Part shown: in pieces, positions 22,498 to 24,794 of the stretch
How the letters are laid out: each line of letters begins with the position of its first letter
Position numbering within the stretch: the stretch's first letter is position 1
IMG/VR virus record: IMGVR_UViG_2630968639_000008
Direction: 5' to 3' (one strand)
DNA length: 33,922 nucleotides
Source of the DNA: a virus
Taxonomy: Duplodnaviria > Heunggongvirae > Uroviricota > Caudoviricetes
The notes under the pieces: model-generated
The model's input: only the letters and a program-made list of their open reading frames with translations
What the model was told of the DNA's origin: nothing
Database searches by the model: none
Made by a program: the position numbers and the translations under genes

Positions 22498-22616
22498 GCT
22501 TCACCTCCGCAGAGGTCAAACGCTGGATGCAAAGAATTGCAGGTGCATTTCTGCATCTGTGAAGGGAGAAGAGAGTTTGGATTGTATGTGCGCATAAACG
22601 TCCCCGTTTAGCGCAG

Positions 22617-22649
22617 AAGTCACCGGAGGAGTTCAAACTCCGGTGACTT
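22617..22649. repeat. Perfect 12-bp inverted repeat (AAGTCACCGGAG ... CTCCGGTGACTT) with a 9-nt loop
   Basis: Seen directly; lies at the junction between the nin genes and the AT-rich cargo; no clean U-tract on either strand. Confidence 0.7.
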
Positions 22650-22718
22650 AATTATGACAAGTTGATTATTGAAAATCAAAAGTCATTTAAACAATAATGA
22701 TACCCCGCAAGAGATTTC

Positions 22719-23120
22719 TTATTTTAACTCATAGATCAGACAGTCAACGATTTCTAAACCATTTACCATAGAATTAGAAACGCGAACTTTACCATCGTTG
22801 ACTCTAGCAAATCCTTTTAACATTTTATAAATAAAAGCTGAATCCCCCTTAGCCTCAATTGCTTCTAATGGTATCGGCTTATACTTTTTTGATATGCTAT
22901 TTCTATTTATCTCACTGATTTTTCTATATATTTCTGCCGGTCCACGTTCTGAGAAGTCACTGATAACTAAAATATATCTCCAAGATAGATCTGGGTAATA
23001 AAACCACATTGCAGCATCAATAGTTAAATTCTGTAACTTGAGTTTTTTTAATAAAAATTGACCTGAGAATTCCATATCTTTTGTCAACTCTCTGCCGATT
23101 ACCAGTGTGCTTTTACCCAT
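22719..23120 (-). CDS. Hypothetical protein, downstream partner of the HEPN-like gene (overlapping, translationally coupled)
   Basis: 133-aa ORF; ATG at 23120 with GGAG 9 nt upstream; overlaps the upstream gene by 22 nt; AT-rich codon usage; no motif recognised. Confidence 0.5.
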   Translation of the reverse strand: MGKSTLVIGRELTKDMEFSGQFLLKKLKLQNLTIDAAMWFYYPDLSWRYILVISDFSERGPAEIYRKISEINRNSISKKYKPIPLEAIEAKGDSAFIYKMLKGFARVNDGKVRVSNSMVNGLEIVDCLIYELK

Positions 23121-23515
23121 TTCAAAACTCCAGAATTTTGGTCACCTACAGCATCAAACAATTGTTCGGCCATAGCTTTACTTATGTTATTGTCGTATCT
23201 AAATTGCTCGCTCCAGTCTTTAACGACCGACCAGTTAATCTCCAACGAAACATCATTTTTTGCGTCAGCAATCAAAATTTGATGTAAGTTGGCAATTTTG
23301 AGAAGTTGCGACAAATCATGAGTATATGAATCATTTACGACTTTTTTGTTTGGAAACTCATGTTGTAAAAATGACTTGGCAATACAGGCCTTCAATGCAC
23401 ATTCAACTGCATACCCACAAAGATAATATGCACCATGAAAAAAGCCATGATCAAGCAAGCATTTGGCCTCATTAAGCCTAGTGTCAGATAATGCTTCAAG
23501 GTCGTTTTTATTCAT
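23099..23515 (-). CDS. HEPN-domain-like protein (candidate toxin or abortive-infection nuclease)
   Basis: 138-aa ORF; helical pattern GAYYLCGYAVECALKACIAKSF, THDLSQLL and C-terminal RYDNN resemble HEPN four-helix-bundle proteins; AT-rich; TATAAT sits immediately upstream of the ATG. Confidence 0.55.
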   Translation of the reverse strand: MNKNDLEALSDTRLNEAKCLLDHGFFHGAYYLCGYAVECALKACIAKSFLQHEFPNKKVVNDSYTHDLSQLLKIANLHQILIADAKNDVSLEINWSVVKDWSEQFRYDNNISKAMAEQLFDAVGDQNSGVLKWVKAHW

Positions 23516-23934
23516 ACAATTATAACTTGAATTATCCTAATTTTTATGATTATACCCTTATCAGGTATGATGTAGGAACTGAAAACAATATTGGATATCA
23601 TTTTCGGTATTTCTCTGCAAATTCCAGCCCACAGGATCTCGGTGTACAATCTGTCGCTGATCGCGCAAATTTAGGGTCAATCACTTCATTTTTTGCATCA
23701 AACCCTCACTAACATCGAACGATTATAGTACAAGTAGTGTTCTTGACTTCTCATTAAACCGTCAGCATTCAATTAATTACAAAATACTAGCGGCATTTCT
23801 CTCCCGCAACTTTATTACAGCCGTTCAGAACGTAAATGCGTCAATACTCGAATCAACTGATCATCCTGCCACGACTGAAATCTCAAATAGGCCGTTTCTC
23901 AAGTAAGAGATTTTGAATGCATTATTGGCTACTG

Positions 23935-23962
23935 AAATAAAAAACCCAGCGCCAACTGGGTT
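23935..23962 (-). terminator. Rho-independent terminator after the secreted-protein gene
   Basis: Minus strand: stem AACCCAG / CTGGGTT with loop TTGGCG, followed by TTTTTTATTT; 17 nt downstream of the stop at 23980. Confidence 0.6.
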
Positions 23963-23979
23963 CATATGAAATTTTTTTG

Positions 23980-24474
23980 TCATTTCCAATTGCAAGACTG
24001 TGAAATTTTTTCCACAACCTTATCAATCTCAGACAAGTCAAACTCAACTACTTGCATAGTTGATCCATAAGGTTCAAACCCAAAAATAGCTTTTTTATGC
24101 TTAGCCAAGGTCTTTATAAATTGTATTGGTTGTGGAGCAAATGCAGAATCACCGCCTTCCCCACCACCCCAAACACTCTTGACCGGCTTTCCGCCATCTA
24201 ACCGCACTGTAATTCTTGGGTTGTCCGAACCCATATAATCATTGAATGATAAATAGGCATCTGTTTTGTTATCACTACAACGCAACACCAGTGAAGTTGC
24301 ACGATCAGTACCTGCTTTGTTATATGAATCTGGTGATAAATTAAGAGCCACAAAGTCAGTCTGGTCAGTCATTTTATTTATCTCAGACTTTGTTATCCAC
24401 GGCCCTAACTTCTCTACACCAGCATTTGCTGTAAACGAGGCACTTATGACAAAGGCTAAAATAAATTTTCTCAT
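23980..24474 (-). CDS. Hypothetical secreted/periplasmic protein (moron)
   Basis: 164-aa ORF with a signal peptide (MRKFILAFVISASFTANA/GVEK), AGGAGA RBS 8 nt upstream, own terminator; AT-rich. Confidence 0.6.
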   Translation of the reverse strand: MRKFILAFVISASFTANAGVEKLGPWITKSEINKMTDQTDFVALNLSPDSYNKAGTDRATSLVLRCSDNKTDAYLSFNDYMGSDNPRITVRLDGGKPVKSVWGGGEGGDSAFAPQPIQFIKTLAKHKKAIFGFEPYGSTMQVVEFDLSEIDKVVEKISQSCNWK

Positions 24475-24620
24475 AACCCTATCTCCTTGGCTTCAAAGAA
24501 CTAAATATTATCAAGTCTCTTGCCACTAGAAAACCCACTTTATTTCCAAACTCTGATGGCATTCCTGAAAATCCGCTTCATACTCACTTGCCCCGCCCTA
24601 TCATCCTGAGTAGCTAACCG

Positions 24621-24794
24621 TTAAACAAACGTTCGCCAGACCTTACCATCAATGACCAGGATTCCTGCACGCGCCATTTTAGCTGCTGCCTGATTTATGC
24701 AGGTTACTGTCACACCTGTTGCCGCAGCAACGTCCTGCGCACAGAAGCTCTTATGCGTCCCCAGGTAATAAATAATTGCCTCTTTGCCCGTCAT
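24621..24794 (-). pseudogene. ren: Truncated ren-like gene (57 codons)
   Basis: ATG at 24794 overlapping the P stop; hand translation MTGKEAIIYYLGTHKSFCAQDVAAATGVTVTCINQAAAKMARAGILVIDGKVWRTFV then stop; matches the N-terminal part of lambda Ren as I recall it (full length about 96 aa). Below the track length cutoff. Confidence 0.5.

Follow-up and report, generated by a model that had tools for sequence, protein, structure and literature searches.

A HEPN protein and an undescribed partner encoded by two overlapping genes in a lambdoid prophage: a candidate conflict cassette

Introduction

HEPN proteins are recurrent effectors of bacterial immunity and of toxin-antitoxin systems, and we know of no mechanism for the large branch of PF05168 HEPN proteins that lacks the catalytic motif Rx4-6H. 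What does such a protein do, and what is the role of a gene that accompanies it? The question is raised by the IMG/VR virus record IMGVR_UViG_2630968639_000008 (33,922 nucleotides; 'the window' denotes this whole stretch), in which two overlapping minus-strand genes encode a HEPN-like protein and a small partner protein, and which an earlier note, made from the sequence alone, singled out as carrying a candidate toxin-antitoxin or anti-phage module. The pair and its surroundings are 100% identical to the chromosome of Escherichia coli STEC409, where RefSeq annotates a lambdoid prophage. Pairs that include a HEPN protein are well known; this one is set apart by how widely it is distributed, by its invariant architecture, by a partner family that is unannotated and by the ease with which it can be tested in E. 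coli. What is new, as read from the sequences, is the combination of a HEPN-T protein with an uncharacterised partner that is not a nucleotidyltransferase of the MNT type, in a deeply conserved and apparently translationally coupled cassette.

Results

Gene 1 encodes a HEPN protein that is not a canonical RNase

The pair consists of two open reading frames (ORFs), both beginning with ATG, that overlap by 22 nt (23099-23120):

23099..23515 (read 23515->23099), minus strand: gene 1, HEPN-T (PF05168-type), 138 aa; RefSeq WP_001038620, 'HEPN domain-containing protein'
22719..23120 (read 23120->22719), minus strand: gene 2, the partner, 133 aa, uncharacterised family; RefSeq WP_000520499, 'hypothetical protein'

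Homologues of both products are found at E-values down to 1e-80, and the pair recurs with its overlap across phyla; the two genes are therefore not chance ORFs. The gene 1 product passes the Pfam HEPN model PF05168 (27.8 bits against a cutoff of 22; E 3e-6; residues 12-118), and many of its homologues carry a precomputed PF05168 assignment. Its AlphaFold model (pLDDT 93.5) has an all-alpha HEPN fold and superposes best on small stand-alone HEPN proteins, the closest solved relatives being TT1696, AF0298, ST0689 and sacsin HEPN; a sequence search of all PDB chains with the HEPN and partner family profiles found nothing. The HEPN-like character that had been read from the helices of this protein is thus borne out by profile and by structure prediction, the two checks that the earlier note had proposed for it. 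The motifs named there, AVECALKA (36-43), THDL (65-68) and RY (106-107), are all present, the last of them, which the note calls C-terminal, some 30 residues before the end of the protein.

Eleven residues are invariant in the family (R13, Y30, Y31, E38, K42, H66, N94, W95, W101, R106 and Y107), and the E. coli protein is about 50% identical to those of Chloroflexota, Bacteroidota or Acidobacteriota. The motif Rx4-6H is not found: R106 is invariant, and the positions 4-6 residues beyond it are variable or gapped in 29 diverse homologues. RNase activity is therefore uncertain. In HEPN-T proteins the canonical His is often missing and a conserved His is located elsewhere (PMC3710099), and the variable His position of gene 1, together with invariant H66, fits this description. 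HEPN proteins without Rx4-6H were still toxic in a genome-scale screen (PMC3710099). We conclude that gene 1 encodes a real HEPN protein that is not a canonical RNase.

Gene 2 encodes an undescribed family and is not a recognisable nucleotidyltransferase

Neither the partner nor any of 109 diverse relatives scanned singly matches a model in Pfam, NCBIfam or PADLOC, and PHROGs lists the partner only as unknown. A word-indexed search recovers 32 close relatives, from Enterobacteriaceae and Acinetobacter; an exhaustive profile search recovers 773 representative clusters, nearly all of 120-150 aa. The protein is alpha/beta, with element order a1-b1-b2-a2-b3-a3-b4-b5, and the positions conserved in its family are G20, L27, W39, W47, G60, Y65, R113, G121, D126 and Y130. 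A Foldseek search of the partner model against the PDB gave nothing significant. In one relative (P0241) the protein is longer by about 60 aa at its C-terminal end, and this extra part has an apparent YegP/DUF1508-like look.

PF05168-type HEPN proteins are typically paired with MNTs, and in such pairs the MNT gene as a rule comes first (PMC3710099). The nucleotidyltransferase signature G[SG]x9-13DxD is absent from the window partner and from the consensus of the 109-member family, and that consensus holds no conserved carboxylate set. None of the 109 members matches the Pfam nucleotidyltransferase models (NTP_transf_2, Polbeta) even at E<=1; as a control, genuine MNTs from the same fetched loci match these models at 2e-14. 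An hhalign comparison of the partner profile with three of these genuine MNTs gave a probability of 0.2%. Only a weak echo of the fold links the partner to the MNTs. The gene order is moreover reversed, with HEPN first. The absent motif, the absent Pfam match and the reversed order rule out a canonical HEPN/MNT pair, and the earlier note, which had seen neither a recognisable motif nor the GS...DxD signature in the partner, was right on both counts.

The same results bear on type VII HepT/MntA systems (Shewanella SO_3166/SO_3165; Aphanizomenon HEPN/MNT), which the cassette resembles in having a HEPN-fold effector and a small alpha/beta partner in one operon, and a conserved Tyr near a conserved Arg. 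In those systems the MNT gene lies 5' of the HEPN gene and the toxin is a DUF86-type Rx4HxY protein; here the HEPN gene is upstream and its product has no match to DUF86, the HepT-type toxin family. Membership is ruled out on motif, partner chemistry and gene order. A cryptic version, in which gene 2 would encode a diverged but active nucleotidyltransferase that AMPylates Tyr107 of the HEPN protein, would account for the invariant Tyr beside the conserved Arg and for the usual company of PF05168-type proteins; it is rendered highly improbable by the missing GS, DxD and carboxylates, by the 0 of 109 Pfam matches, by the Foldseek and hhalign results and by a gene order opposite to the MNT-first rule. 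We conclude that the partner is an undescribed family, that nucleotidyltransferase activity is very unlikely, and that descent from an MNT is possible.

The two genes form an ancient fixed unit

One genome per species (185,579 species representatives) was scanned with the HEPN alignment as query, the partner alignment being too divergent to seed a scan. At least 594 species representatives carry HEPN relatives (594 of 600 candidate stretches confirmed, among the matches listed). Among the matches listed, these span more than 12 bacterial phyla, including Acidobacteriota, Desulfobacterota, Chloroflexota, Planctomycetota, Bacteroidota, Verrucomicrobiota, Nitrospirota, Gemmatimonadota, Latescibacterota and Methylomirabilota, and relatives occur also in Gamma- and Betaproteobacteria and in one metagenome-assembled genome (MAG) assigned to Aenigmatarchaeota. 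This archaeal MAG (L018) carries the pair. A 3.6-kb contig binned to a Sphingobacterium MAG (L009) carries a module 83% identical to that of E. coli, which suggests mis-binning or recent transfer from an enterobacterium.

Of 130 loci, 125 have the partner gene directly downstream of the HEPN gene (83 of the 88 from genomes and all 42 evaluable viral loci from IMG/VR), and HEPN is the upstream gene in every locus examined. The five exceptions are four contigs that end too early and one in-frame fusion of HEPN and partner. The fusion, in a Bryobacterales MAG (L080 7953-8777), places both in one ORF of 274 aa and is either natural or a 1-nt assembly error; if real, it would be direct evidence for joint action of HEPN and partner as a single unit. 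Co-evolution of the two proteins is seen in their pairwise identities, which correlate with r = 0.70; HEPN is the slower-evolving (mean identity 49% vs. 34% for the partner). We conclude that the pair is an ancient fixed unit and that its linkage is obligate.

The junction between the genes is equally constant:

23099..23131, minus strand: putative translational-coupling junction, comprising an internal Shine-Dalgarno sequence, a spacer, an embedded ATG and the 22-nt overlap

In the window, GGAG (23131->23128), encoded by HEPN codons G129-V130, is followed by a 7-nt spacer (ttttgaa) and by the partner ATG at 23120, which lies within the codons for K-W in the C-terminal HEPN sequence GVLKWVKAHW-stop. 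The arrangement recurs in the family: GGAG comes from the codons of invariant Gly129-Val130, and the partner ATG lies within the x-Trp codons of a conserved HEPN end, GVLxW[IV]KxxW-stop. About 68 of the 83 genome loci with a partner, and 41 of the 42 viral ones, have the -22 overlap with a GGNGT..N7..ATG layout, and the overlap, with its Shine-Dalgarno sequence and an ATG in HEPN codons, is found in Acidobacteriota, Desulfobacterota, Chloroflexota, Planctomycetota, Bacteroidota, Proteobacteria and the one archaeal MAG. Because the same 22-nt overlap is retained across phyla, the reading of the two genes as translationally coupled and as one unit is strongly supported. The overlap, the GGAG and the coupling proposed in the earlier note thus stand; the gap between GGAG and ATG is 7 nt rather than the 9 nt given there, which is good Shine-Dalgarno spacing.

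A candidate promoter precedes gene 1:

23549..23578, minus strand: putative module-borne sigma-70 promoter, with a perfect -10 TATAAT (23554->23549), a weak -35 TTCCTA (23578->23573) and an 18-nt spacer

This putative promoter lies about 35 nt upstream of the HEPN ATG. A generic promoter scan did not call this site, its -35 element falling below the scan threshold. About 60 nt 5' of the HEPN start, including GGGTATAATCA and TATAAT, are common to the E. coli module and a Klebsiella module, and the sequence further upstream is unrelated, which suggests that the module carries its own promoter.

The cassette is horizontally mobile

In E. coli the cassette is carried by 190 of 5426 complete genomes (3.5%), including O157:H7, O26, O103 and O111 strains, always as a single chromosomal copy and with at least 99% identity between copies. 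In unrelated lambdoid prophages of Klebsiella the pair lies between replication and nin genes, and in Acinetobacter prophages at the lysis-integrase end. It also adjoins known toxin-antitoxin genes: on a 13.9-kb Acinetobacter plasmid it stands beside BrnT/BrnA, and in a Woeseiaceae MAG among PIN, HicB and Fic genes. The cassette is self-contained and horizontally mobile, and is found in two different prophage cargo slots. It shares the generic traits of type II-like toxin-antitoxin systems, namely two small adjacent genes, strict co-occurrence, sporadic mobile distribution and unrelated flanks. As far as sequence can tell, the pair is built as a mobile, self-contained cassette, and its two products would act together in fixed proportion.

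The cassette as a candidate toxin-antitoxin or abortive-infection module

We propose, with a probability of about one half, that the cassette is a toxin-antitoxin-like or abortive-infection module in which the HEPN-T protein is the effector and is restrained by a partner that binds it but does not modify it chemically. What we infer here is that the two proteins physically associate, that HEPN is toxic and that its partner neutralises it, together with the trigger and an RNA target. In an E. coli lysogen, the cassette would probably be expressed from its own promoter as a prophage 'moron'. The HEPN-T protein would probably form a dimer, with the cleft residues R106-Y107, H66, E38/K42 and N94 binding or cutting RNA or binding a nucleotide ligand. 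For the partner to be made, ribosomes would re-initiate within the final codons of the HEPN gene, and such re-initiation is expected to tie the production of the two proteins closely. The partner would most likely bind the HEPN protein directly and hold it inactive, and inhibition would be stoichiometric rather than by AMPylation, since the partner is without nucleotidyltransferase catalytic residues. If the partner were lost or displaced, be it upon phage infection, host shut-off or element loss, the HEPN protein would be released and would arrest translation, leading to abortive infection or to post-segregational stabilisation of the element.

This proposal is supported by the obligate linkage and co-evolution of the two genes, by the asymmetry of conservation, by mobility, sporadic distribution and unrelated flanks, by toxin-antitoxin neighbours, by carriage in prophage cargo slots, by a BstA-domain protein in the same slot of other E. 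coli prophages, by the direction of decay in E. coli O157:H7 and by precedents for a motif-less HEPN toxin and for an RnlB-like antitoxin. A toxin is usually more conserved than its antitoxin, and here the HEPN protein is the more conserved of the two. One O157:H7 strain has a frameshifted HEPN gene and an intact partner gene, which is a tolerated direction of decay for a toxin-antitoxin pair. On a Deinococcus plasmid (NZ_CP140099; L099 4995-6763), the gene for a HEPN homologue (42% identity) overlaps by the same 22 nt the downstream gene for a 460-aa protein. The N-terminal 126 residues of the latter make up the partner domain (E 1e-25), and its C-terminal part matches DUF3800; fusion of the partner to DUF3800 with the overlap kept fits an adaptor or binding role.

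The last two observations bear also on a reversal of roles, in which the downstream partner would be the effector or toxin and the upstream, non-catalytic HEPN protein the antitoxin or regulator, as in the usual antitoxin-first order of type II systems. The HEPN gene does come first, its product has no RNase motif, and it is the partner domain that is fused to an extra putative effector domain (DUF3800). However, the HEPN protein is the more conserved one, the partner has few conserved polar residues from which an active site could be built, and the O157:H7 strain, with its frameshifted HEPN and intact partner, would be expected to die if the partner were toxic. We regard reversed roles as improbable.

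Several results weigh against the proposal. The HEPN protein lacks Rx4-6H, and for none of its closest solved relatives (TT1696, AF0298, ST0689 and sacsin HEPN) do we know of a demonstrated nuclease activity. Among 144 flanking ORFs in the genome loci, which match 171 Pfam families, none more than three times and mostly housekeeping, we found neither a third conserved gene nor a defence-island context; few flanking ORFs match PADLOC models, and those matches are mostly to generic domains. Outside prophages, the immediate neighbours are ordinary housekeeping genes rather than defence islands, and many copies are co-directional, with very short gaps, inside housekeeping operons, as in Chloroflexota, where the pair sits in a purN-purM-[pair]-purH operon and has a 4-nt overlap with the purH start; an autoregulated toxin-antitoxin module is not usually placed in this way. 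Among phages the cassette is rare (1 of 50,697 sequenced phage records; 43 of 2.9 million IMG/VR contigs), and no acidic/basic charge split between the two proteins is consistent across the family. Finally, a Catalinimonas assembly (L002) has a nonsense codon in the partner gene and an intact HEPN gene, assembly error being possible, and in one further locus (L061) the partner is truncated; both would be unexpected if free HEPN protein were lethal.

Most of these points speak also for a non-toxic accessory heterocomplex, a constitutive RNA- or nucleotide-binding factor (acting, e.g., in translation modulation or nucleotide sensing) that confers a modest fitness benefit and is ordinary prophage cargo. 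The HEPN protein's identity of about 50% across phyla, its missing motif, the lack of known nuclease activity in its structural neighbours, the housekeeping operons, the neighbours that are not defence genes and the damaged partners beside intact HEPN genes would all be at home in this explanation. It has more difficulty with the patchy occurrence (3.5% of E. coli genomes; at least 594 of 185,579 species representatives), with a GC content foreign to the host, with plasmid and prophage carriage and with toxin-antitoxin neighbours, features that point to a selfish or conflict element more than to a physiological factor. We consider the accessory heterocomplex unlikely, but the most serious of the alternatives.

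Among known systems, the cassette is by analogy most like the MNT-HEPN dyads of the HEPN-T branch and RnlA/RnlB. In such dyads (Anantharaman et al. 2013, PMC3710099), whose HEPN-T proteins are of PF05168 type, the other protein is a nucleotidyltransferase; here it is not recognisable as one, its family has no database model, HEPN comes first and the overlap is fixed at 22 nt. RnlA-RnlB and LsoA-LsoB provide the likeness in proposed mechanism: there, the HEPN toxin is neutralised through direct binding by a small, non-enzymatic, unstable protein, as RnlB does for RnlA, and the systems reside on mobile elements and act against phage (PMC3710099). HepS of Salmonella prophage Gifsy-1 provides the likeness in location: it is a HEPN protein that a lambdoid prophage carries as cargo, with replication genes on one side and late-regulatory genes on the other, and it is constitutively expressed and acts by abortive infection (PMC13043305). 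A HepS-type system is ruled out, as HepS is a solo protein with canonical Rx4-6H (PMC13043305) and the cassette has two genes without the motif.

Against PADLOC-DB v2, no known defence system has all its components matched by the pair. The sole match is a weak one of the HEPN protein to PDC-M28A (138-position model; 1.8e-7 for the window protein), shared by 29 of 29 HEPN family members tested (best E 7.5e-12), and no member of the partner family matches the other PDC-M28 components. PDC-M28 is an untested three-family candidate predicted through 'guilt-by-embedding' (Payne et al. 2024 preprint, 10.1101/2024.01.29.577857). The profile check proposed in the earlier note thus gave a partial answer, a weak hit for one protein, nothing for the other and no described system. 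A literature search found no paper on PDC-M28, WP_001038620 or WP_000520499, and neither accession is present in the DefensePredictor supplements.

More tentatively, and with some doubt, we suggest that the E. coli cassette may represent an unrecognised and widespread class of HEPN conflict systems (at least 594 species), with a non-canonical active or binding site in the HEPN-T protein and an undescribed partner fold, possibly that of a dead MNT descendant, serving in prophages for abortive infection or superinfection exclusion.

The cassette is a tractable entry point to motif-less HEPN proteins, having two genes, about 800 bp and a fixed architecture in E. coli, and conserved R106, Y107, H66, E38 and K42 are obvious targets for mutation. 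If the toxin-antitoxin or abortive-infection proposal is true, the cassette would define a partner family that Pfam, NCBIfam and PADLOC do not yet contain and would reveal the mode of action of a HEPN protein without the motif. The ren-nin slot of lambdoid prophages, among them prophages of O157, O26, O103 and O111 Shiga toxin-producing E. coli, would then also count a defence gene among its cargo. If the HEPN protein is not toxic, the cassette would be a counter-example against reading every small HEPN pair as a toxin.

The cassette lies in a mosaic AT-rich island between ren and the nin region

The surroundings of the pair in the window contain the following further features:

22684..24620, minus strand: AT-rich cargo island between the cut-off ren and the phage-82-like nin region (composition, RefSeq annotation, phage 82 homology)
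23942-23963 (read 23963-23942), minus strand: terminator-like hairpin with a T-run, 3' of the VasI-like gene and separating it from the HEPN pair
23980-24474, minus strand: VasI/TagO-like gene directly upstream of the pair, 164 aa, with an N-terminal signal-peptide-like sequence
24526-24794, minus strand: ren pseudogene, whose ORF ends after 57 codons, exactly at the start of the AT-rich island

In STEC409 the RefSeq backbone order is replication genes, P, ren pseudogene, 'TagO' (VasI-like), HEPN, partner, orf33, ybcN, ninE, ybcO, rusA, ylcG and quuD. GC content is 0.32-0.41 across about 22600-24550, compared with 0.49-0.57 on either side, which confirms the AT-rich block (about 22650-24600) that the earlier note had described as interrupting a P-ren-nin-Q backbone. 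The block is a mosaic, comprising the VasI/TagO-like secreted-protein gene with its terminator and then the HEPN pair, and only the latter belongs to the module. Since the ren ORF ends exactly where the island begins, ren probably had its 3' end replaced when the island arrived.

The VasI-like protein matches Pfam VasI (type VI secretion) at the borderline (26.7 bits against a cutoff of 26.5) and is named TagO by RefSeq. Many other E. coli carriers have a P22AR-C gene in its place beside the pair, and the mobile unit is therefore the two genes. As a part of the module the VasI/TagO-like gene is ruled out, since Klebsiella, Acinetobacter and other E. coli have copies of the pair that lack this neighbour.

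On the other side of the pair, no intrinsic terminator was called directly after the partner gene, and an Rfam scan for structured RNA in or around the module gave sub-threshold noise only. Homology to the nin-region leader of phage 82 resumes at 22683 (window 22600-22683). Just downstream of the module, at 22619-22647, is a perfect 10-bp inverted repeat, GTCACCGGAG ... CTCCGGTGAC. Its counterpart in the nin region of phage 82 (X92588) is annotated as a 'possible regulator-binding site' and follows a putative promoter there. The repeat belongs to the phage-82-type nin leader, i.e., to the backbone and not to the module.

The earlier note had called the nin region a hotspot of morons for defence and exclusion, and in other E. 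coli prophages the slot does hold varied cargo. In E. coli 1410D004 the same ren-orf33/ybcN slot (L100 4245-5174) holds a protein with the C-terminal domain of BstA, a prophage abortive-infection protein, and alternatives in the slot in other E. coli (L100-L103) are emrE with a ybcK recombinase, or an alpha/beta hydrolase with an inverse autotransporter. The slot from ren to orf33/ybcN is a variable cargo hotspot.
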